NCBI GenBank assembly: GCA_965216325.1
Contig: OZ244160.1
Coordinates: forward strand, 2,368,001-2,432,000
From: Coraliomargarita sp.
GTDB taxonomy: Bacteria > Verrucomicrobiota > Verrucomicrobiia > Opitutales > Coraliomargaritaceae
Reading direction: 5' to 3'
Length of the DNA stretch: 64,000 nt
The first letter of the stretch is position 1, and each line of letters begins with the position of its first letter. The notes beneath the pieces were generated by a model. The model did not search any database and was not told where the DNA came from. It worked only from the letters and a program-made list of their open reading frames with translations. This document shows positions 14,922 to 55,178 of the stretch, in pieces. A program made the position numbers and the translations under genes.

Positions 14922-14939
14922 ATCACTCGTTTGAGTGAT
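14922..14939. promoter_or_regulatory. 18-bp operator copy 1 (leftward sulfatase operon)
   Basis: ATCACTC-GTTT-GAGTGAT; minus-strand TAGTCT (14895-14900) lies 21 bp away. Confidence 0.75.
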
Positions 14940-14961: not shown

Positions 14962-14979
14962 ATCGCACATATGAGGGAT
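14962..14979. promoter_or_regulatory. 18-bp operator copy 2 (SGNH operon)
   Basis: ATCGCAC-ATAT-GAGGGAT; TGc-TAAGCT at 15001, 21 bp away. Confidence 0.75.
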
Positions 14980-19332: not shown

Positions 19333-19350
19333 ATCGCTCATACGTGCGAT
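19333..19350. promoter_or_regulatory. 18-bp operator copy 3
   Basis: ATCGCTC-ATAC-GTGCGAT; TATGGT at 19373, 22 bp away. Confidence 0.8.
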
Positions 19351-29706: not shown

Positions 29707-29724
29707 ATCGCACGTATGAGCGAT
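29707..29724. promoter_or_regulatory. 18-bp operator copy 4
   Basis: ATCGCAC-GTAT-GAGCGAT; TATGGT at 29746, 21 bp away. Confidence 0.8.
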
Positions 29725-36117: not shown

Positions 36118-36197
36118 GGTAGGGAGGTCTGCCTCAGACCTCCGTTGCGGCGTTGTCAGTGTTGTGGAGCGGAGGCATTGGGGCATGCCTCCCTACC
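36118..36197. repeat. REP doublet (REPIN/BIME-like) downstream of RAYT
   Basis: GGTAG-GGAGGTCTG-cct-CAGACCTCC ... GGAGGCAT-tggggc-ATGCCTCC-CTACC. Confidence 0.9.
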
Positions 36198-36648
36198 TTT
36201 GAGGTTCCCATTGCCATTCCCAGTTTTCGGTATCCTTGCACAGACCTGCGCGTATCGGATTTTTGCGTATGTAGGTGGCTTTTTCGTCCCACGCATTCCG
36301 ACCACGTAAACGATGCTCGAAAAAGCCTTCTTGCCACTGAATCTTATGTTGTCGGGCGGTGAGGCGTTTCCAATTGGAGATCGATTGCTTCATCGAACTA
36401 AGCGGCTCGGGAAAACTCATAATCGCATGTAAATGATCCGGCATAAGCATCAGGAGATGCCCATACCAATCGCCTCGCTTATGCCCGAACTCAAATGAGT
36501 GTATTAACTTAGGTGCAATTGTTGGAAGTGTGAGCTGATCTGTGTGTCGTTGTTGGCAGCAAATGGTGAGAAAGAAACGTTCGTTCTCGGGGCGTATCCA
36601 ATTTGGCGTTTCATGGCGTAGCCATTTGCGACTCGGAAGCTCACTCAT
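36193..36648 (-). mobile_element. rayT: REP-associated tyrosine transposase (RAYT, Y1 HUH family)
   Basis: FFLTICC, MPDHLH (HUH), WQEGFFEHRLR, YIRKNPIRAGL; flanked by GTAG REPs. Confidence 0.9.
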
Positions 36649-36812: not shown

Positions 36813-37499
36813 TCAGTCTTCCTTCCTCTTGATGGGTAAGATGCCTGTTTTATAGGCTGTGGAAACGGCTGCGGGGGCATTGAGCACATTGAGTTTGTCG
36901 TAAACATGGCGGATGTGCGTCGAGACCGTGAAGAAGCTGATGCCCAGTTGCTCGGCGATTTCCTTCTTCACTAGGCCATCGCTGAGGAGCACGAGCACTT
37001 CCATCTCGCGGCTGGATAGAGTGGGCTGGTTGGCATCTTTAGTTGGAGCATTTTGTATCTGCTCCATGATGTATTTGGCCACCTTACTATCGAGGTGTGC
37101 ACCGCCATCGGCAACAGTATGAATGGCATCTTTGATTTGCTTTACGGTCGACGATTTCAGGAGGTAGCCTGTTGCTCCATTCTTAATCGCGGTGAGGACA
37201 TCGCTCTCTGCATCGGACTGGGTGATCACAATGATGGGTGTTTCGGGCAGGTATTCGCGAATCCACCGCATTGCTTCGAGGCCGGACATTTCGGGGAGAT
37301 TGAGATCCAGCAAAACGATATCGGGAGCGGCACCTTCAGACCCCTGTGCGGATTTCGGCTCCATCGCACGGAGTGCATGTTCGGCGGATCCAAAAATGCC
37401 GACGAGATTGATGTCGTCCTCAAACTCGAGGGCCATTTTGAGGACGTTGCGATACTCGGGATTATCTTCGACGACGATTACTTTGATGGGACTTGGCAT
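36813..37499 (-). CDS. NarL/LuxR-family response regulator
   Basis: REC domain (VVEDN, LLDLNLP, GATGYLLK) plus HTH (LSSREMEVL...KEIAEQLGISFFTVSTHIRHVYDKLNV). Confidence 0.95.
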   Translation of the reverse strand: MPSPIKVIVVEDNPEYRNVLKMALEFEDDINLVGIFGSAEHALRAMEPKSAQGSEGAAPDIVLLDLNLPEMSGLEAMRWIREYLPETPIIVITQSDAESDVLTAIKNGATGYLLKSSTVKQIKDAIHTVADGGAHLDSKVAKYIMEQIQNAPTKDANQPTLSSREMEVLVLLSDGLVKKEIAEQLGISFFTVSTHIRHVYDKLNVLNAPAAVSTAYKTGILPIKRKED

Positions 37500-37502
37500 T
37501 GG

Positions 37503-39494
37503 CTAATGGGAGAGAAAAAAGAATCTACGGCGTTTTAAGTGCAGGCAGATTCGTGTGCCGCCTTCGGCCGGGTGGGTTAAGTGTATTTGGCCGCGCATAA
37601 TTTGAGCGCGGCGTTTCAATGAGGGGGGCATGTCTGCGTCTGCGGTGGCGGTATAGCCTTGCCCATTATCCTCAATGCAAAGCCGTATTTGCTGCGAGGT
37701 TGCAAGTAGCTCGACGCTGAATGCAGTTGCTCCGGAATGGCGACTAATGTTGGCCAAGCATTCTTTGTAGAAGAGGAAGAGGTCGTTACGGGTGCGTAGC
37801 TTGAGTTCCTGTAAGAAGGCCTCTCCCTCTATCTGGATGGTATAGTCCAGATCATGCATCATGCGTTTTGCGATTCGGTGCATGTCCTCGCGTAAGGTGC
37901 CCATGGGGTCGCGTGCGAGTTGTGAGTTGGCGCAATAGCGCACGGCGTCGCTAGTGCGCTCGGTGACTGTGCGCACTTCTGTGACGATGCGTTGCAGTTT
38001 GTCCTTTTCATCCACTGCATCGTGCGCGAGGTCACTCAGTAGGCCGATGGCATGAAGGTTGGCTCCTAACTCGTCGTGCAGGTCGGCGGCAAAGCGCTTG
38101 CGGATGCGGGCGATTTCGCGCATCGAGCGCATACGGCCGATGAGGTAAATAATGATGATGCCTGCTGCAAGCGTGGCAGCCAGGTAGACCATGAGACGGA
38201 GGTTGGCTTTTTGGCGAGCGTAGCCCTTGCTGATGGCCTCTAGAATCTGTGGGCGTTCAACGGCAAGCTCGTGGCGTTGAGCGAGCTGCTCCATCCAGAG
38301 GTTGAATGGCAAGATGTTGCCGTAGTAATTGCGTCCATCGGTGAGGGCTTCCAAGTTGTTACCGCTTCCTTTGAGTTCTGCTTCGATGTAAACTTCTTTA
38401 TCTAAGGCGACATTTTGGTTGCCGGATAGAACCTCGATTTCAGCTAGCCCAAGGATGCCCAATTGAGTGTCGCCCGTTTGGTAGGTGATGTCCGATTCGA
38501 GCACCGTGAATCTTAAATAGCGAAAGTGCCCTTCGGCGAATCGGAGCGGAAGGATCGGGCCGCTGTCGTAAATACTTTGGATCTGATAGTCGACCAGTAG
38601 TGTGGCATCTGAGAAATCGATCGTATTGGATCCTTCAATACGCAGATGTCTGGGCATCCCATAGTCATCCGGGTTGGTTTGGGGGATGCTGTCGCTTAGC
38701 TCGAGTCCATGCACGTTGATTTGGTTGATGAGTTGACTGCTCTCTAAATCAATTGTGAGGACGGGCTGCACGCCAACTTCGAAAAGGCAGACATATGGAA
38801 GGCTTTGCGCGCCTTTATAGTCGTCCATCAAGTAGGGGAGGAATCCGTCAACCAGATAGTCTTGATTATGGGCGACGTATTTGAACTCAGGGCCGGGGGA
38901 ACTCGACGATGCGGCGACGGATTGACCGAGCGCGAGATTGCGACCCGCGCCGATGAGCATGACTTCAGCCAGCTCAAACACGTAGACATTGTCCCATGCG
39001 CGAATGCCGAGCTCTGTGGCGACGATTCGCACCCAGGAAGCTTGCAGGTCTTTGGTGGGGATGACCAAAGGTGCGGTGCGTGGCAGCAGTTGATCCGCAG
39101 GGCTGAAGCTGGCGATGATTTGACCTTCGGCTGCCTCGCCTGTGCCTGCGATGATATGAAAGCTTTGTGGGAATGCATCGGCCTGAATGCCTTCCTGTGG
39201 ACTGCGGCGCAAAGTTGGGACTAGAACGACCTGATCGATTGCATGTTGCTGCTGCAGATCAATCTGAATCCATTCAGTGTTGTCTGGGCTGGTGTGTGAC
39301 TCGGAACGATAACCAATGGCCCCAGAATCACTGCGCATCGCTAGCGTGGGGAGTTGTGCTAACTCGGTATCGACTTCACTCAGGCGTGCCTCGAGCTTGG
39401 ATAGGCTCCAACGCTGATAGTCGACATCTCCATTGCTTTGCTGGAGAGCAAAGCTAAGGAGAGCAATCAGACTAAGGTGGCGCTTGAATGGCAT
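37503..39494 (-). CDS. HisKA_3 sensor kinase with periplasmic discoidin (F5/8)-like domains
   Basis: Signal peptide; EWIQIDL...WVRIV...ELAEV...NLAL pattern occurs twice in related form; one TM helix; RFAADLHDELG; ECLANISRH; IEDNGQG. Confidence 0.88.
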   Translation of the reverse strand: MPFKRHLSLIALLSFALQQSNGDVDYQRWSLSKLEARLSEVDTELAQLPTLAMRSDSGAIGYRSESHTSPDNTEWIQIDLQQQHAIDQVVLVPTLRRSPQEGIQADAFPQSFHIIAGTGEAAEGQIIASFSPADQLLPRTAPLVIPTKDLQASWVRIVATELGIRAWDNVYVFELAEVMLIGAGRNLALGQSVAASSSSPGPEFKYVAHNQDYLVDGFLPYLMDDYKGAQSLPYVCLFEVGVQPVLTIDLESSQLINQINVHGLELSDSIPQTNPDDYGMPRHLRIEGSNTIDFSDATLLVDYQIQSIYDSGPILPLRFAEGHFRYLRFTVLESDITYQTGDTQLGILGLAEIEVLSGNQNVALDKEVYIEAELKGSGNNLEALTDGRNYYGNILPFNLWMEQLAQRHELAVERPQILEAISKGYARQKANLRLMVYLAATLAAGIIIIYLIGRMRSMREIARIRKRFAADLHDELGANLHAIGLLSDLAHDAVDEKDKLQRIVTEVRTVTERTSDAVRYCANSQLARDPMGTLREDMHRIAKRMMHDLDYTIQIEGEAFLQELKLRTRNDLFLFYKECLANISRHSGATAFSVELLATSQQIRLCIEDNGQGYTATADADMPPSLKRRAQIMRGQIHLTHPAEGGTRICLHLKRRRFFFLSH

Positions 39495-39545
39495 TCGTGT
39501 GAGTGGTCGAATATAGGGATAGGGGCTAGGAGCAGTCGAGATAAG

Positions 39546-39573
39546 AAAAAGGCCGCAGCCTTTCGGCTGCGGC
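39546..39573 (-). terminator. Intrinsic terminator after the PEP-CTERM gene
   Basis: Minus strand GGCCGCAGCC-GAAA-GGCTGCGGCC (loop shares a base) followed by TTTTT. Confidence 0.85.
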
Positions 39574-39609
39574 CCATCCCTATATTATATATCCCCTTAT
39601 AATGAAAAT

Positions 39610-40617
39610 TTAGCGACGGCGGCGCAGCATCACCGATCCGAGTGCAAGGAATCCACCGAGCAGAGCAAAGGAGGATGGCTCTGGAACGACGGTGATATTT
39701 TCGAGGGTGAGCACAGTGCCAAACCCATCTGCTGTGAACACGAAATTACCTGTTCCGTTGAGAACTTGAAGGTTTGCAAAGTCATCTTGATCCCAGCTGG
39801 AAAATTCTGTGTCAATCAATGTAATCGTGGTGCCGTTTGTGTTAACATCGTAATTCGCAACATCGACGTAGATGCTTTCGTTGAGAGCGGAGCCATCAAT
39901 ATTGTCGAATGAATTCGAGTTCAACACGCTAACACCGTCAGCATCTGCATTGAAGTTGAAGTTCAGATTACCAGTTCCGTTCATCGTGAAATTACCGAAG
40001 TCAAGTGACGCATCGGATCCGGTAATTGTGAAGTTGCTAGTGCCCCCACCTAGGAACCCTGTTTGAACTCTGACGCCGTTGCCGCCGCCATTATATTCAA
40101 CGCTGCCACCGGAGATATTGAATTCTGAATTACCACCCAGCTGGAAAAACGCCTGATTGCCTGAAGTTGTAGTCAACGTGCCGCTGCTAAGGTTTAATTT
40201 TGCAGATCCGGAACCAAATGCACCAAGATTATTTGCCCCAGACGTTTCATAGCGTCCGCCGTTGATGTTGAATGTGCCGGTTGCGTTGTCCGAGCCAGAG
40301 AGATTTGAACCAGCACTTGTTAATGTGCCACCAGAGAGGTTCAATGTGCCGCTCGATCCGGTGCCGACACCTATTGTCAGTGTGCCAGTTAGAGTGCTGT
40401 TTGCAGTGGTGGACGAATGTGTCACTACATCAGTCGTTCCTGCCTCACCAATTTCTACAGAAGCAGTCGGAGCAACATCCCAACCGGGGTTTCCTACATC
40501 ACTCCAGCTGCCTGTGCCGGAGTATCTGCTTACTTGCGCTTGCGCGATTGAACTAAAACCGACGAATCCTGCGAGTAGTGTAGACGCGGCAAGGAGTTTG
40601 CTAGGAGTATTTTGCAT
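39610..40617 (-). CDS. PEP-CTERM surface protein, G/S/T/N-rich passenger-like
   Basis: Signal peptide; C-terminus VPEPSSFALLGGFLALGSVMLRRRR. Confidence 0.93.
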   Translation of the reverse strand: MQNTPSKLLAASTLLAGFVGFSSIAQAQVSRYSGTGSWSDVGNPGWDVAPTASVEIGEAGTTDVVTHSSTTANSTLTGTLTIGVGTGSSGTLNLSGGTLTSAGSNLSGSDNATGTFNINGGRYETSGANNLGAFGSGSAKLNLSSGTLTTTSGNQAFFQLGGNSEFNISGGSVEYNGGGNGVRVQTGFLGGGTSNFTITGSDASLDFGNFTMNGTGNLNFNFNADADGVSVLNSNSFDNIDGSALNESIYVDVANYDVNTNGTTITLIDTEFSSWDQDDFANLQVLNGTGNFVFTADGFGTVLTLENITVVPEPSSFALLGGFLALGSVMLRRRR

Positions 40618-40720
40618 AATGTCTCGTATCTATGGGTTAGGAAGCCTTTTTGCTGGGGCAACTGAGTTGATGGGTAATTGATTTTGAGGCTGAGATTACA
40701 GGATGTGCTGTTTTTTGTCT

Positions 40721-40738
40721 ATCGCACGATTGTGCGAT
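40721..40738. promoter_or_regulatory. 18-bp operator copy 5
   Basis: ATCGCAC-GATT-GTGCGAT; minus-strand TAATCT (40693-40698), 22 bp away. Confidence 0.82.
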
Positions 40739-40765
40739 GGGTGTTTTTTTACATGTAAAGTCGCT

Positions 40766-41608
40766 TTAGAGACGTCGACGCCTCGACAAGGCTAGGCTGG
40801 CTGTTATGCCCGCGAAAATTAGAGCGTAAGTGTGTGGTTCAGGGATACCTACGGGAGCCCCTTTCTTACTTAAATTGGTGAGTGCAATCGCTGCTTGCCC
40901 CGAAACAGTGGTGTAGTGGTAGTCGATGTCGCCACTCCAACCTTCGCTGAGCTTAATCTCGCTAAAGCCGGTGCTTTGTGGTGGGTGTCGCAATTGTGTG
41001 AAGAGCACGAGGTCGGTGCCGTTTTCGAGCTGGTAGTGTTCCAAATCGACTTCGAGGCGGCCGCCACGAATAAAGGCCGAGTGGCTGACTTTGATGGGAC
41101 TGACTCCTGTTTGGTCGGCGATGAACTCGGTTGTGTGGTCCTGATTGTTGCCATTGTAGAATCCCGGGATAGCGACCTGTGCTCCTGCTTCTACAGTCAG
41201 GCGCATGGTGCCGCGACCTTCAGCAATCGTAAAGTTGCCTTGAGTTGCGAAGTCGAGCGTGCCGCCTTTGGCGACGATGAGGTGTCCGTTGTTGCTAATG
41301 CGCAGCACACCTTTGGAGTTGGCAGTGGAATCCATCCGTTGCCCATCGCCGATGATGAACGGTGCGTGCAGAGATGCATCGGTATGCTGGCCTGCTGGTT
41401 TGGATGGATCAGGCGCATGAAAACGGATTGAGTCGATACCGCTGCGTGGCGGGGTGTTATTGTTCCAGTTTTGGGCTTCTTCCCAGGATTGAGAGTAAGA
41501 GTGTGCGCCATTCCAGAGCGCAGTGCCGGCATGGGCCACAGAACAGAGGGTAGTCAATGCAAGTGTTGCTACCTTAAGTGAAGTAACATTGGAGAGGTGA
41601 CGATTCAT
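40766..41608 (-). CDS. PEP-CTERM surface protein
   Basis: Signal peptide; C-terminus IPEPHTYALIFAGITASLALSRRRRL. Confidence 0.92.
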   Translation of the reverse strand: MNRHLSNVTSLKVATLALTTLCSVAHAGTALWNGAHSYSQSWEEAQNWNNNTPPRSGIDSIRFHAPDPSKPAGQHTDASLHAPFIIGDGQRMDSTANSKGVLRISNNGHLIVAKGGTLDFATQGNFTIAEGRGTMRLTVEAGAQVAIPGFYNGNNQDHTTEFIADQTGVSPIKVSHSAFIRGGRLEVDLEHYQLENGTDLVLFTQLRHPPQSTGFSEIKLSEGWSGDIDYHYTTVSGQAAIALTNLSKKGAPVGIPEPHTYALIFAGITASLALSRRRRL

Positions 41609-41714
41609 TGACAGAATGATAGCTGACAGGGAGGGGGTGTTTCAGTTCGTATCGGTAATACGGCTTCTATTGAGTTGTTATTTAAAGGTATAGCATGGCT
41701 CAAGTGGCTGGGAT

Positions 41715-41732
41715 ATCGCACATATGTGTGAT
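41715..41732. promoter_or_regulatory. 18-bp operator copy 6
   Basis: ATCGCAC-ATAT-GTGTGAT; minus-strand TGc-TATACC (41687-41692), 22 bp away. Confidence 0.78.
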
Positions 41733-41853
41733 AACAGATGTATCAAATGGGGGATGCCGGAAATATCTGTGGATGATTTTGTGTAGTTGTCGGCGGATAA
41801 TCACGCAGATGGGCTGATGCTTATTTGTTGAGATCGGGAGTGTGTTGCGATCT

Positions 41854-41871
41854 ATCGCACATATGTGTGAT
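41854..41871. promoter_or_regulatory. 18-bp operator copy 7 (pilin-like gene)
   Basis: ATCGCAC-ATAT-GTGTGAT; TATGAT at 41893, 21 bp away. Confidence 0.8.
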
Positions 41872-42039
41872 GTGGCGATCTGTTCGGCCGTGTATGATCG
41901 TTCATCATTTCAATTGGGCCTATTAGTCGCGCCAGTCCGGATCGCGATCAATTGATCTAGGTCTAGTTTTCTCGAAAACGTCGCTTCGTTACTTGTCATC
42001 TGCTTACCCCTCTACTTTCTTTATTACTCCTGCTCCTCC

Positions 42040-45000
42040 ATGTCCTCTCCACTGATACCACGCCAACAAAACTCATCTGGAGGGTTTGCGCTTGTTCTTG
42101 CCCTGAGCCTGATGGCTTTTGTGCTGTTGCTGGTGCTTTCGATTAGCACCTTGGTGAGCGTGGAGTCCAAGTCGTCGTCGATGGTTTCGGCTCGCGCTGA
42201 AGCTGAGCAAGCCGCACTTGTGGGGCTACAGGTGGCGATTGGCGAATTGCAGAAGAGCGTCGGGCCGGATCAACGTGTAACCGCACGTGCAGACCGACTC
42301 CCTGCGCCGAATGCGAATCGTCAATATTATACCGGCGTGTGGGATAGCACGAATGGAGATTTCGTGCAGTGGCTAGCGAGTGCGGCGGATGCCAATGGCA
42401 TCCAAGATCCTACAGCGTTGAAGAATGAGGCAGATGTGAATGCGGCCTCGTTAGCTCCTGAGAGTATTGTTCTACACCGCTCGATTGATGGGACGGAGGA
42501 TGTCACTGCTGACAAGGTAGAGCTGGAGCCCTCGACGGCCTATGCCTATTGGGTTGCGGATGAGGGGGTAAAGGCGAAGGTGAATACCATCGCGGATGAA
42601 GACTATTATGCGATGGTGGCGGATGCGGACCCGACCGATCCCAAGTGGCTTTCTTCCATGGGGGCTGCGCCGACGGTTGGTGCTGAATTGATTCCGGAAC
42701 TGAATGCGGCCGTCGCTGCGAAACATATAGATCCAGCAATTCGTGAAAGCTTGAGGAAGTTACAAGCTGCCGATGATTTGAAGCTGCTTAATGTGGGTGC
42801 GGATGCACTTCGGCGATTGAAGCATGATATTACACACTATTCATACGGTCTATTAACGAATCCGGTGGATGGAGGCTTAAAGACGGACCTGTCGTTGGCC
42901 TTTGAACACGGGAATATGGATGCGGGGAATGTTTTCGTTGTTGAGGATTACACACATCCGGATGCTGGTTCCATCGATGTGCGTGGGCCGACGTGGTCGG
43001 TGTTTCAAGATCATTACAATCTCTATAAACAGATGTCGTTCAGTTCGGGTATTCCAAGCATCCAGACGACCGACCCTACATCGCATGGTGAGCTGACGGG
43101 AACTGGAGTCGGGAGCGATGCGGGCAATTTTTACGTGTTTCGTGGTGAGATCTTTTATCGTTTCTTAGATCCGAACGTTTACGAGGTTGCAGAGAATTTG
43201 AACAACGGCTCGTTTGATGGCTTTGAGTTGCCCCGGCCTGTTCTTGTGCAACGGCAACCAGTCTACCTTGGCCATATCATGGTAATCTCTATGTTCAATG
43301 ACGGTGGCATTCTTAAGACCGTGTTGAACCCGGTGGCGATCCTTTGGAACCCATATAATGTCCAGCTTGAGCTTGCCAGTGAGTCGAGGGTGAAAGTTCA
43401 GCCCTGTATCGCGGTTGAGTATCGATTCAATGGTGACACGGACCCATATAAGGGGCGTGCATCGGTTCCGATTATGCTACAGGAGCAACTTGGTGTGCGA
43501 CGCCCGGATCTTTATTTGACGATTCCAAGTGGTGATCAATTTGCTCCGGGGGAGTTGAAACTCTACTCTGCGGATGGTGTCGTGACGAGCCCTTTCGTTT
43601 CAACGACAACAACCTTTAATCCTGCTAGTGGGGTCTATTTGGATCGATGGTTGGATGCTTCCTTGATTGGTCGCAATGATATCCTGACGCTGAGCAATAC
43701 CGCGAATTATGTGCCTGATGGGCTTACGGTTCCGCCGGAAGTTACCTCAATCGACATTGCGATTTCTCCGTATCAGACGAATTTCAACGAGTCCTACTAC
43801 GAACTGCCAAGTTCACCAAATCACTATTATCAGAAGCTATACGCGTTTACCGGAGATATGGGGACCGGGCCGACTGGGCCACAAGGCACCTTCGATGTGA
43901 CGACAAGCGGCAAGGAGGGGTTGAGCTTTGTGTCGAGTCAACCGGTATCCGCGTTGGGGTCTCCGTATCCAATCGGTGTCTTCAATTGGACGACTGCGGC
44001 TGCGGATAACATCAACAATCATCTGTATGCTTCAGACCCGAACAAGGCGAGTGCAGTGGATATGTTTCTGGTGTCGAATCCGCGTGCACCGTTTTCCACC
44101 AGCGAGATTGGGACCTACTGGCACCAGCGTTCGAATGTTCATACAACACTGGAACCTTTGGCTTTTGCCGGAGGAATTACCGAGCTGGAGAATTTCTTTT
44201 TTAACTACGAACGCCCGCATTATGGAACTTCGTATAACACTGTTGGCAACGGGCAAAATCGTCCGATCGCTTGGGAGTTTCCTCTGGCACCACTGACATC
44301 GATTGCCCAGTTGCAGCATGTCTTCTTTAATGTCGATGGCTATGAGCCGTCATATGCAATTGGCAATTCATTCGCGTCTCCCTACCTGCGTAGAGATGAG
44401 TCGATTTCAACGGTTGGGCCGATCCAGTATTTAAACAATGGTGCAACATGGACCGGGTCTGCGGTTGATTTCTCATACCTTTTGAATGAGGCATTGTGGG
44501 ATGATTATTTCTTCTCGTCACTCTCGCCGACTTATGAGGACGGATCAGAGACTGAGGACATTGAAGAAGCGGTCGATGCCTTCTTGGATGGCAGCGGAAG
44601 GCTGAAGAATTCTCGCATGCATTTACATTTGCCTGCGACAACCGATGCCAATGGGCTTGCTGAGATATTGAAAGATCAGGACCCGGATAATGATCCAGAG
44701 AACGTCATTGCTGCTCACCTGATGGTCGAGGGTGCTTTTAATGTGAATTCGACCTCGGTTCCGTCCTGGAGAGCGTTTCTTGGCAGCGCGTATAACTTGC
44801 CTGCCGTTGGGATGGAACTCGAAGATGGCGGCGGAGAGTCTCTTGAGATTGAAACGAATACAGATGAGGCTGCCTTTTCCCGTTTCTCAATGCCGACCTT
44901 GGACAAAAGTCACCCGAGTGCTGCTACGATACAGAACAATCAGGGGAGTGGTTACCGGACATTGGACGCGGCTGAACTGGATGCGTTAGCTACTGAAGTC

Positions 45001-45525
45001 GTGGAGCAAGTTAAAGCGCGTGGCCCTTTCGTGTCGCTTTCTGACTTTATTAATCGAAAACTTTCGACTGGCGATGATGGCTTGGTGGGACCCTTGCAAC
45101 AGGCGATCAATGATGCGGGCTTAAACGATAACTATGAACTTGGATTGCCTGTTGATTATAGTGGTAGCTCGCCTTCATCGAGTCGGCGCCATGATGTTTT
45201 TCTCGATCCCGAAGCAGGCACGGGTAACTCATACGGCGCTGGTCCAGGGTATTTGCTCCAGGGAGACTTGTTGAATTCTTTGGGTTCCAGTATGACAGTG
45301 AAGTCGAATACCTTTACGATTCGAAGCTATGGGGAGTCGCGCAACCCTATTAGCGGTGCGAGTGCAGAGGTATATCTTGAGGCGACTGTGCAGCAGTTTC
45401 CTGATTTTGTCGATCGTAGTGAATCGGCGGATACAGAGCTGGCTGACTTGAGTCCGATAAACGAACGTTTTGGGCGACAGTTTAAAATTGTTCAAATACG
45501 CTACCTGAGTTCGGACGAAATATAG
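42040..45525 (+). CDS. Large PilX/GspK-like minor pilin protein (Verru_Chthon cassette protein A-like)
   Basis: SGG|FALVLALSLM prepilin-like N-terminus without Glu5; GELQKSVGPDQRVTA, AYWVADEGVKA, GAFNVNSTS, RGPFVSLSDFINR, SNTFTIRSYG, FGRQFKIV. Confidence 0.8.
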   Translation: MSSPLIPRQQNSSGGFALVLALSLMAFVLLLVLSISTLVSVESKSSSMVSARAEAEQAALVGLQVAIGELQKSVGPDQRVTARADRLPAPNANRQYYTGVWDSTNGDFVQWLASAADANGIQDPTALKNEADVNAASLAPESIVLHRSIDGTEDVTADKVELEPSTAYAYWVADEGVKAKVNTIADEDYYAMVADADPTDPKWLSSMGAAPTVGAELIPELNAAVAAKHIDPAIRESLRKLQAADDLKLLNVGADALRRLKHDITHYSYGLLTNPVDGGLKTDLSLAFEHGNMDAGNVFVVEDYTHPDAGSIDVRGPTWSVFQDHYNLYKQMSFSSGIPSIQTTDPTSHGELTGTGVGSDAGNFYVFRGEIFYRFLDPNVYEVAENLNNGSFDGFELPRPVLVQRQPVYLGHIMVISMFNDGGILKTVLNPVAILWNPYNVQLELASESRVKVQPCIAVEYRFNGDTDPYKGRASVPIMLQEQLGVRRPDLYLTIPSGDQFAPGELKLYSADGVVTSPFVSTTTTFNPASGVYLDRWLDASLIGRNDILTLSNTANYVPDGLTVPPEVTSIDIAISPYQTNFNESYYELPSSPNHYYQKLYAFTGDMGTGPTGPQGTFDVTTSGKEGLSFVSSQPVSALGSPYPIGVFNWTTAAADNINNHLYASDPNKASAVDMFLVSNPRAPFSTSEIGTYWHQRSNVHTTLEPLAFAGGITELENFFFNYERPHYGTSYNTVGNGQNRPIAWEFPLAPLTSIAQLQHVFFNVDGYEPSYAIGNSFASPYLRRDESISTVGPIQYLNNGATWTGSAVDFSYLLNEALWDDYFFSSLSPTYEDGSETEDIEEAVDAFLDGSGRLKNSRMHLHLPATTDANGLAEILKDQDPDNDPENVIAAHLMVEGAFNVNSTSVPSWRAFLGSAYNLPAVGMELEDGGGESLEIETNTDEAAFSRFSMPTLDKSHPSAATIQNNQGSGYRTLDAAELDALATEVVEQVKARGPFVSLSDFINRKLSTGDDGLVGPLQQAINDAGLNDNYELGLPVDYSGSSPSSSRRHDVFLDPEAGTGNSYGAGPGYLLQGDLLNSLGSSMTVKSNTFTIRSYGESRNPISGASAEVYLEATVQQFPDFVDRSESADTELADLSPINERFGRQFKIVQIRYLSSDEI

Positions 45526-45547
45526 ACGGTATCCTCCCTTAGTAGTT

Positions 45548-46243
45548 ATGAGATTATTTCGATATATTGCTTGTTTGTTTGCTCTAGTGCACTCGGTGGC
45601 TGCACAGCCTGACGAGGAAGTCGTGCGTTTTGACTTTCGTTGTTTGGCAATGTCGAAGGATCTTCGATTGATGAAGCTTTATGTTGGTGCTCCTGAGGGG
45701 AGCGAGCGCCAGCAAGTCCGCTTGAATGATTTGTCCAAGACTGAAACTTACAGCTACTCAGGAGCACCACTCTTGTATTTCTACGATCAGGCTCAGGGGG
45801 GGGCTGTCGTTGCAAGCTACCGCCATAATCCTATGCATGAAGCCCCTTTGCTCATTTTCGTCCAGAATGCAGAGGGCGCGATGCCAGCTTTCAGCGTGCT
45901 TGGAATTGAGGATAGTTGGTCAAAGGTTGGGGCTGGTTCCAGCTTATTGGTCAACCTTGCGAGTAAACCGCTCTACTGGCAGTTCGGAGATCAACGCTTT
46001 GAAATTCCATCAAAAGATCAGCGCCTAATTTCAGGAACAAAAGATGCTAAAACACCTGTTGTTGCTCTAGAGGTGGATCAGAATGGAAATCCGTTTCGTG
46101 TATATCGTGGACAGTGGCTGAATATTGAGAATATGCGCCGCCTAATCTTTGTGCGGGACACAACAGATTGTGAAGTTGGTTCTGTGCGTGTAAAAGTGAT
46201 TGAAGACTTTTACGTTCCTAAGGCTGAGGCCGAGGAGGACTAG
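45548..46243 (+). CDS. Secreted hypothetical protein, co-transcribed with the pilin-like gene
   Basis: 231-aa ORF with signal peptide, 22 bp downstream of the previous stop. Confidence 0.75.
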   Translation: MRLFRYIACLFALVHSVAAQPDEEVVRFDFRCLAMSKDLRLMKLYVGAPEGSERQQVRLNDLSKTETYSYSGAPLLYFYDQAQGGAVVASYRHNPMHEAPLLIFVQNAEGAMPAFSVLGIEDSWSKVGAGSSLLVNLASKPLYWQFGDQRFEIPSKDQRLISGTKDAKTPVVALEVDQNGNPFRVYRGQWLNIENMRRLIFVRDTTDCEVGSVRVKVIEDFYVPKAEAEED

Positions 46244-51056: not shown

Positions 51057-51074
51057 ATCGCACAGACGTGCGAT
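51057..51074. promoter_or_regulatory. 18-bp operator copy 8 (divergent promoters)
   Basis: ATCGCAC-AGAC-GTGCGAT; TATATT at 51096 (+) and TGc-TAGAGT at 51030-51035 (-), each 21 bp away. Confidence 0.82.
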
Positions 51075-55160: not shown

Positions 55161-55178
55161 GTCGCACGTATGAGCGAT
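55161..55178. promoter_or_regulatory. 18-bp operator copy 9
   Basis: GTCGCAC-GTAT-GAGCGAT; TATGGT at 55201, 22 bp away. Confidence 0.8.

Follow-up and report, generated by a model that had tools for sequence, protein, structure and literature searches.

A predicted GspK-like giant pilin and its secreted partner in the regulon of a verrucomicrobial glycan locus without SusC/D

A glycan-degradation locus with sensing and surface genes

The window analyzed here is a 64-kb stretch of the complete 3.06-Mb genome of Coraliomargarita sp. (contig OZ244160.1, positions 2,368,001 to 2,432,000), and our subject is a pilin-like protein of 1161 amino acids (aa), hereafter the giant, which is encoded with a secreted partner inside a glycan-degradation region. 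Open reading frames (ORFs) were called mechanically, and a Pfam scan of 28 large ORFs delimited this region at ~2.9-57.5 kb of the window. Its enzymes comprise three sulfatases, a GH29 fucosidase, GH36 and GH36-like enzymes and a GH63/MGH1-like enzyme. Carbohydrate esterases (SASA, GDSL, AXE1/DLH-like and BD-FAE) are numerous, some of them lying within proteins of 3247 and 2126 aa, and further genes encode NPCBM modules, a GFO/IDH/MocA oxidoreductase and a sodium:solute symporter.

An earlier note, made from the sequence of this stretch, had described the locus as devoid of TonB-dependent transporter and SusD genes, and the searches agree. The window contains no TonB-dependent receptor domain, all eight PF00593 matches falling elsewhere in the genome, and no SusC/D-type Pfam family was detected among the 28 large ORFs scanned. 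The adjacent SusC-like and SusD-like genes that define a polysaccharide utilization locus of the Bacteroidota type are hence missing from the window. What the locus offers instead resembles SusC/SusD by position only, as a putatively substrate-induced surface module amid the enzymes of a glycan locus, and shows no homology to them. The two PEP-CTERM genes, the 1161-aa prepilin-like gene and the secreted partner that the note had placed there were all recovered (Table 1).

Table 1. Features of the sensing and surface module and of the operator sites, in window coordinates.
Feature	Position	Strand	Evidence or context
NarL/LuxR-family response regulator, 228 aa	36813..37499	-	Response_reg 83.3 bits, GerE 59.6 bits
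HisKA_3 sensor kinase, 663 aa	37503..39494	-	HisKA_3 30.3 bits (cut-off 24)
Terminator-like hairpin 3' of the first PEP-CTERM gene	39550..39575	-	Stem of 11 bp (9 G-C pairs) ahead of a T run
PEP-CTERM protein, 335 aa, Gly/Thr/Ser-rich repeats, single-gene unit	39610..40617	-	TIGR02595 17.2 bits (cut-off 16)
PEP-CTERM protein, 280 aa	40766..41608	-	TIGR02595 19.0 bits (cut-off 16)
Predicted giant GspK-like cap pseudopilin, 1161 aa	42040..45525	+	Prepilin-type N-terminus, predicted fold
Secreted partner, 231 aa, two predicted beta-sandwich domains	45548..46243	+	Signal-peptide-like N-terminal helix; 22 nt 3' of the giant gene
Two operator copies	14922..14939 and 14962..14979		Between the sulfatase/GH36-like/SSF/GH29 operon and the divergent GDSL esterase operon
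Operator	19333..19350		5' of the 3247-aa SASA/GDSL multidomain esterase gene
Operator	29707..29724		5' of the 2126-aa SASA multidomain gene
Operator, ATCGCACGATTGTGCGAT	40721..40738		5' of the 335-aa PEP-CTERM gene; TAATCT 22 nt downstream on the - strand
Operator	41715..41732		5' of the 280-aa PEP-CTERM gene; hexamer TATACC, the only one of ten promoters failing TAnnnT
Operator	41854..41871		5' of the giant gene; TATGAT 21 nt downstream
Operator	51057..51074		Between the esterase/GH63-like operon (-) and the SASA-NPCBM/esterase/GFO operon (+); -10-like hexamer 21 nt off on both sides
Operator	55161..55178		5' of the GH36 (melibiase) gene

The note had also proposed a discoidin-domain kinase with its regulator. 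The pair itself stood: Response_reg, GerE and HisKA_3 domains all score above their cut-offs, as expected of a NarL/LuxR-type two-component system, with the HATPase_c domain of the kinase (18.8 bits) under its own. The discoidin (F5/8 type C) assignment remained below threshold, the ~400-aa periplasmic part of the kinase scoring 27.2 bits against a cut-off of 27.8 for F5_F8_type_C_2 (PF22633) and 18.9 against 28.2 for PF00754. A related kinase from another giant-bearing locus (L041; phmmer E 4e-127) is likewise borderline for F5_F8_type_C (E 2.7e-6, 28.0 against 28.2 bits), and the best match of the window sensor domain among PDB sequences was a fucolectin-related protein at an E-value of 0.19. 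Related kinases also adjoin giants in loci L055 (E 3e-186), L096 (E 1e-150) and L030, and relatives of the regulator do so in L041, L096 and L030.

The terminator-like hairpin divides the 335-aa PEP-CTERM gene from the kinase/regulator operon. Both PEP-CTERM proteins fall under the cut-off of Pfam PF07589 and above that of TIGR02595, and three Exosortase_EpsH matches in the genome complete the evidence for a PEP-CTERM/exosortase system. The Atlas clusters nearest to the 280-aa protein are verrucomicrobial PEP-CTERM proteins. On one Luteolibacter contig an exosortase (L069:3106-4116, - strand; Exosortase_EpsH, E 3e-49) is encoded within 3 kb of a giant, which is another tie of the giant cassette to PEP-CTERM sorting.

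Two further observations concern the sensing genes and their surroundings. A paralogous kinase of 655 aa (E 2e-38 to the window kinase) and a 215-aa regulator-like gene lie at 445697-466457 of the genome, together with a gene for a 2712-aa protein and a number of small genes whose products begin like signal peptides, one of them weakly matching P0003; no giant pilin was found in that interval, which may constitute a second sensing and surface module of similar style. In the window, a 151-aa transposase of the REP-associated tyrosine type adjoins the regulator gene (36193-36648, - strand; NF047646, 79.8 bits against a cut-off of 80).

A locus-specific operator and the giant gene

Pattern and weight-matrix searches revealed nine copies of an 18-bp palindrome, ATCGCAC-N4-GTGCGAT, in the window, all of them intergenic (Table 1). 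The strict pattern accounts for six sites, against 0.05 expected in shuffles; a relaxed pattern added those at 40721 and 55161, and a weight matrix the one at 14922. When this matrix was run over the 3.06-Mb genome, the nine window sites scored 20-29 bits and no comparable intergenic site was found outside the window. The best-scoring site elsewhere (22.7 bits, genome position 2147759) sits at a junction of coding genes and was taken as a chance occurrence. To our knowledge, the motif matches no known binding site.

Each site was read toward the gene that it precedes, the one at 51057 in both directions, yielding ten putative promoters. A TAnnnT hexamer (mostly TATGGT) follows the operator by 21-22 nt in nine of them, which, given a background frequency of 1.5% for this pattern, corresponds to a binomial P of ~3e-16. 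If the hexamer is the -10 element, the operator would span approximately -51 to -34. Class II activators such as LuxR bind lux-box-like sites centred near -42. The arrangement in the window shares with LuxR/NarL class II activation an 18-bp palindrome with 7-bp arms, a neighbouring gene for a GerE-type regulator and the 21-22 nt spacing to a putative -10 element. The 228-aa regulator, which has a GerE helix-turn-helix, is a candidate binder of the palindrome, no copy of which was found upstream of the kinase/regulator operon itself.

Of the ten units defined in this way, four are operons with enzyme genes (sulfatase/GH36-like/symporter/GH29, GDSL, esterase/GH63-like and SASA-NPCBM/esterase/GFO) and three are enzyme genes (those of the two giant esterases and of GH36); the remaining three are the giant and partner pair and the two PEP-CTERM genes. 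The claim that the PEP-CTERM and pilin genes carry the operator of the enzymes is therefore borne out, and the operator copies and promoter geometry place the giant, the enzymes and the two PEP-CTERM proteins together in one putative regulon that is specific to this locus. For three enzyme genes, the longest-ORF starts (14978, 19366 and 29723) fall in or just after the operator and ahead of the -10-like hexamer. These ORFs have probably been called too long, and the real starts are probably downstream ATGs that open typical signal peptides, leaving very short leaders.

The weight matrix was also applied to 1.37 Mb of related loci, where it returned a single site of at least 17 bits (L096, position 6974; 27.8 bits, with an estimated ~0.01 expected). 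It separates a divergent PEP-CTERM gene from an operon encoding a kinase and a regulator (E 3e-62) related to those of the window, a 1114-aa giant and a 238-aa partner; sulfatase-like genes are located on the other side, and a second, weaker copy of the palindrome (15.4 bits) immediately precedes the giant gene. Coming from an unrelated contig, L096 provides independent support, at the level of predicted sites, for the link between operator and giant.

The giant protein and its partner

The N-terminus of the giant, SSGG/FALVLALSLM, presents a prepilin-type junction between G15 and F16 with Leu instead of Glu at position +5. The Gly-x motif recurs in 71 of 76 full-length relatives, 67 of which have Phe at +1 and none Glu at +5; among the non-gap rows of alignment A1, the junction residues are conserved in 34/35 (G) and 35/35 (F) sequences. 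Conservation is high at positions 1-120, 271-330 and 750-1161 and lowest at ~330-750. An AlphaFold2 model built on a 41-sequence alignment (mean predicted local distance difference test score, pLDDT, 82.5; predicted template modelling score 0.86) features a 59-residue helix at 16-74. Comparison of this model with 48,161 chains using VIA-align identified GspK (3ci0_K) as the best match, with a Z-score of 11.8 and a root-mean-square deviation of 3.1 over 240 of 280 residues (model range 44-1158), followed by XcpX (5vtm_X, Z 11.5) and ComZ (Z 7.2), with all other matches at or below 5.5. In the model, the N- and C-terminal parts of the giant together form a GspK-like core, and the middle part contains immunoglobulin (Ig)/C2-like beta sandwiches.

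The predicted structure and the N-terminal motif without Glu5 hence support the identification of the giant as a GspK-type cap pilin, in agreement with the earlier note. Since sequence homology is undetectable, the assignment draws on the predicted fold, this motif and the gene order of one related locus, L076, in which H-, I- and J-like pilin genes directly precede a giant and its partner; these three pilins show weak matches to the D-, B- and C-type Verru_Chthon models. GspK is encoded after H, I and J and forms the tip complex with GspI/J; this gene order was seen only in L076, no pilin gene adjoining the giant in the window. The features in common with GspK and XcpX (3ci0 chain K, 5vtm chain X; NF037980) are an N-terminal helix lacking Glu5 and a split pilin core with an inserted domain. 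Unlike GspK, the giants are 3-4 times larger, vary in their middle part (~330-750), are not encoded with gsp genes, occur in four to at least 20 copies per genome and are nearly always followed by the gene for a secreted non-pilin partner, and the giant in the window would be co-regulated with glycan enzymes.

Two other relationships were considered. The Verru_Chthon cassette is a group of four genes in which proteins B, C and D are of prepilin type. Its protein A (TIGR02600), also a verrucomicrobial pilin-like protein (~1300 aa), matches the window giant over its first 59 positions only (16 bits); the four giants of this genome match profile positions 1-59 or 1-78 with 14-35 bits, far from the curated cut-off of 332.3, and genes for B, C and D do not adjoin the window giant. 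The other giant relatives scanned against NCBIfam behaved similarly, with matches confined to the N-terminus and three of them without any match. Some databases name relatives of the giant as "PilX family", and no Pfam family, the PilX model included, matched the giant at E-values up to 0.01. The second relationship involves ComZ of Thermus thermophilus (6qvi), a tip-located competence pilin that acts in DNA uptake and pairs with the pilin PilA2. ComZ also combines a minor-pilin fold with a large inserted beta domain, but the match extends over 111 residues, the insert is dissimilar and the genomic context differs. A ComZ-like role in DNA uptake was set aside, given that the operator ties the gene to a glycan regulon and that the similarity is confined to the pilin core.

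The partner matched no Pfam family, and its close sequence relatives amount to 22 proteins with 45-77% identity; its 30 nearest Atlas clusters are unnamed and verrucomicrobial, with no named family among them. Its model (pLDDT 91.7) contains two beta-sandwich domains, for which the top-scoring folds are of a generic kind (PepT2 extracellular domain, Z 12.6), the second domain resembling pneumolysin D4, the C-terminal domain of AlgF (6d10, Z 8.8) and TssJ. Identification of the partner as AlgF was not retained, PF11182 giving no match and the fold similarity, with an Atlas score of 0.79, serving as a lead only.

The association of the two genes was surveyed in 78 loci drawn from at least 674 giant relatives. 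A same-strand ORF of 218-290 aa directly follows 62 of the 73 full-length giants with room downstream, at distances of -62 to +126 nt; in six of the 11 exceptions an ORF of partner size had been masked by the filter on overlapping ORFs, raising the count to 68/73. All four full-length giants of this genome have a partner-type ORF. Of the four other partners compared with the partner profile, that of one paralogue matched with an hhalign probability of 96% and three matched weakly (5-43%), and phmmer searches with the partner returned no paralogue in its own genome. The giant and its partner are thus a conserved pair. Some Verrucomicrobiales genomes carry such pairs in tandem arrays of two or three (L037, L061, L099 and L102).

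The giant family encompasses 4348 clusters at 50% identity (E<=1e-3; 2084 at E<=1e-30), with members in Opitutales, Verrucomicrobiales, Chthoniobacter and one Kiritimatiellota genome. Three of the four full giants of this genome are found amid sulfatases, GH63-like or GH95 enzymes, or giant surface proteins, and the fourth beside a sigma-54 regulator and housekeeping genes. One of these paralogues (genome 416947-421405; L009:11947-16405) begins 5 nt past a 1014-aa gene of no known family, in a long same-strand row with genes for a GFO oxidoreductase, a sulfatase, a GH63-like/sulfatase/discoidin fusion and an aldose epimerase; the strand and the 5-nt gap indicate that it is probably co-transcribed with the enzymes. 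A fifth cassette has probably left a remnant elsewhere in the genome (2895671-2896291; L013:9671-10291), where a 206-aa ORF next to two sulfatase genes and a LacI regulator gene shows similarity to the giant over its C-terminal end only (E 7e-14).

Filament machinery and the possible role of the capped filament

The earlier note had proposed that the giant is a tip subunit that plugs into shared filament machinery. That machinery is indeed encoded elsewhere in the genome, which contains one prepilin peptidase (Peptidase_A24), five PilB/GspE-type ATPases, several PilT-type ATPases, PilC and 17 N-methyl pilin genes, none of the latter being located in the window. A complete type II secretion system (T2SS) set, G-H-I-J-K-L-M with a K protein of 397 aa, is also present, as are two pilin sets that each include a member without Glu5, of 465 or 623 aa, labelled PilX-like by N-terminal motif only, since neither matched any family. 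Furthermore, a five-gene pilin operon at 88.0-91.7 kb of the genome encodes two GspG-like pilins, followed by weak D/H-, B/I- and C/J-type matches, and is followed by no K-type or giant gene. Each of five related genomes contains one counterpart of the J-like gene, in the same G-G-H-I-J operon and again ending without a giant or K gene, so that this K-less operon occurs in 6/6 Opitutales-type genomes examined. The same five genomes present 8-27 matches each to the C-terminal part of the giant, and the genome studied here has four full copies. This pattern of one stem and many caps fits the plug-in proposal circumstantially.

At ~1330-1336 kb of the genome (L026:4047-9902), a PilB-PilT-PilB-PilC cluster is flanked by genes for Rho and dephospho-CoA kinase. 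According to passages of PMC13174399, these two genes also neighbour the pilus locus of the Akkermansia mucin utilization locus MUL2.

Taken together, the data suggest a role for the pair in glycan capture or uptake, in which a cap and partner expressed within the regulon would equip a filament with a locus-specific head for the target glycan; we place this reading first, with a probability of about 0.45. In the proposed mechanism, the kinase would sense a breakdown product of the target glycan, and the regulator would bind the palindrome and activate the ten promoters from approximately -42. The giant and its partner would then be made together with the esterases, sulfatases and glycosidases and with two PEP-CTERM surface proteins sorted by exosortase. 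Following cleavage between G15 and F16 by the prepilin peptidase, the giant would join the I/J-like pilins of the K-less operon and cap a filament composed of pilins encoded elsewhere, polymer would be bound at the cell surface by its variable head (~330-750) together with the partner, and retraction of the filament would fall to a PilT-type ATPase. A broader formulation, which we regard as doubtful at present, envisages one constitutive G-G-H-I-J stem with interchangeable, substrate-induced giant caps, forming a pilus-based counterpart of SusC/D that would recognize the polymer and draw it in for "selfish" periplasmic degradation. Were it correct, genomes would hold from four to more than 20 caps, each with its own head and partner and many of them in the regulons of glycan loci.

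Several results weigh against the proposed capture role. As regards the identity of the giant, its score against the GspK model NF037980 is 14.4 bits, within the N-terminal 71 residues only and far below the cut-off of 130; hhalign comparison of the giant family with the GspK of the same genome gave a probability of 1.8%, and Foldseek returned no PDB match at E<=0.001, ranking GspK first at 0.054. The head of the giant shows only generic Ig/C2-like matches (Z <=5.5), and no carbohydrate-binding Pfam family was detected in it. Regarding assembly, the link to the K-less operon is circumstantial, in a genome that also encodes a full T2SS, GspK included, and two further pilin sets. As for regulation, no palindrome of at least 17 bits was found in L030, L031, L041 or L055, which contain related kinases or the closest giants.

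The tie of the family to glycan loci is likewise partial. A scan of neighbouring ORFs of at least 180 aa within 3 kb of giants covered 186 of 280 selected ORFs in 52 of the 78 loci, with a stricter E-value for the second batch. Clear carbohydrate-active enzymes (CAZymes) or sulfatases were found in only 20 of these 52 loci (13/26 and 7/26 in the two batches) and make up 30 of the 186 ORFs. Several giants adjoin housekeeping genes, such as rpoC and tRNA synthetases, and others efflux pumps; LacI-, AraC- or GntR-type regulators are frequent neighbours. Searches with a sulfatase hidden Markov model located 36 sulfatases in 25 of the 78 loci, or ~3.5 per 100 kb of flank, against a background of 1.55 per 100 kb that constitutes an upper bound (2295 first-look candidates in 148 Mb from 33 of the same genomes), so that the enrichment is only ~2-fold. 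Of the associations that the earlier note had expected for paralogues of the giant, that with the partner held for 62-68 of 73, whereas CAZymes or sulfatases lie nearby in only 20 of 52 loci and a NarL-type two-component system within 10 kb in ~11 of 78.

These figures could indicate that the pair is an incidental neighbour, that is, a surface module (widespread, mobile or fast-evolving) that has nothing to do with glycan use and merely happens to lie in this locus. The 32 of 52 loci without a clear CAZyme or sulfatase within 3 kb and the modest sulfatase enrichment are in line with this view, as are the transposase gene next to the regulator in the window and a transposase that interrupts L030, the locus of the closest relative. 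Against it, a copy of the locus-specific operator precedes the giant gene itself, in a promoter spaced like those of the enzyme genes, the same operator and a related kinase and regulator precede the giant in L096, and the paralogue of this genome described above follows its neighbour by 5 nt within the same-strand row of sulfatase, GH63-like, epimerase and oxidoreductase genes. An incidental association is hence very unlikely.

The filament could also serve export, with giant and partner topping a type II-like pseudopilus as a cargo-specific secretion cap that pushes the 3247- and 2126-aa enzymes or the PEP-CTERM proteins across the outer membrane and does not capture glycan. In fold, the giant comes nearest to the T2SS caps GspK and XcpX, the K-less operon begins with two GspG-like pilins, the regulon is dominated by giant esterases with signal peptides that require export, and one cap per enzyme set would account for the many paralogues. 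Such a cap would nonetheless operate in a genome already endowed with a full T2SS pilin set and a 397-aa GspK, many members of the family reside in loci without nearby secreted enzymes, and the occurrence of PilT-type ATPases within the PilB/PilC cluster suits a retractile fibre. No result here distinguishes export from capture, or either of them from the attachment considered next, and we consider a secretion cap unlikely on balance.

A third alternative limits the capped filament to attachment, as an adhesin on glycan-rich particles or algal surfaces that are degraded by free enzymes, with no part in import. ComZ-like tip pilins bind ligands, the present analysis contributing the fold match only, and the giant gene shares its operator and promoter geometry with the genes of two PEP-CTERM surface proteins; for Akkermansiaceae, passages of PMC13174399 propose attachment to fucose-rich glycans by means of a type IV-like pilus. 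The regulon, however, holds a sodium:solute symporter and periplasm-type enzymes, which implies that import of the products is part of the programme, and searches of the giant head and the partner detected neither an adhesin nor a lectin family. A role in attachment alone thus appears improbable, more so than one in secretion.

The capture reading has precedents among relatives of the Verrucomicrobia. Pilus-based glycan acquisition has been proposed for Akkermansiaceae, with the type IV-like pilus of Akkermansia MUL2 (amuc_1099-1102; PMC13174399), and for planctomycetes, with the "fishing rod" pilin idea (PMC12078418, citing Boedeker 2017). As described in passages of these papers, both cases involve bacteria of the Planctomycetes-Verrucomicrobia-Chlamydiae group that lack SusC/D and would bind or pull glycans by pilus-like fibres, using small pilins and PilM at a conserved housekeeping position, not giant caps inside enzyme loci; the same passages make no mention of a giant cap pilin or partner. 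Literature searches found no paper describing a giant GspK-like cap with a partner, none on the Verru_Chthon cassette and none on Lentimonas with fucoidan and a pilus. Matches for GspK in Verrucomicrobia were irrelevant by title and abstract, the term "pseudopilin" was absent from the papers found on Verrucomicrobia, polysaccharide and sulfatase, and the Thalassobacterium paper (PMC11980603) contains no pilus, pilin, secretion system or transcriptome terms. New here are the link to a regulon, with its promoter geometry, the finding of this link again in L096, and the conservation of the K-less stem operon.

In marine carbon cycling as in the use of gut mucin, it is an open question by what means the Verrucomicrobia and their relatives, without transporters of the SusC/D type, bind large polysaccharides that are sulfated or acetylated and bring them into the cell. 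The locus analyzed here provides a concrete candidate, with a defined operator, a candidate regulator, a cap-pilin and partner pair under its own putative promoter, and a separate candidate stem operon. If the proposed role is correct, it would assign a function to thousands of "hypothetical" genes, furnish a marker of substrate-specific glycan loci in this phylum and help to explain how the Verrucomicrobia live without the usual outer-membrane importers.

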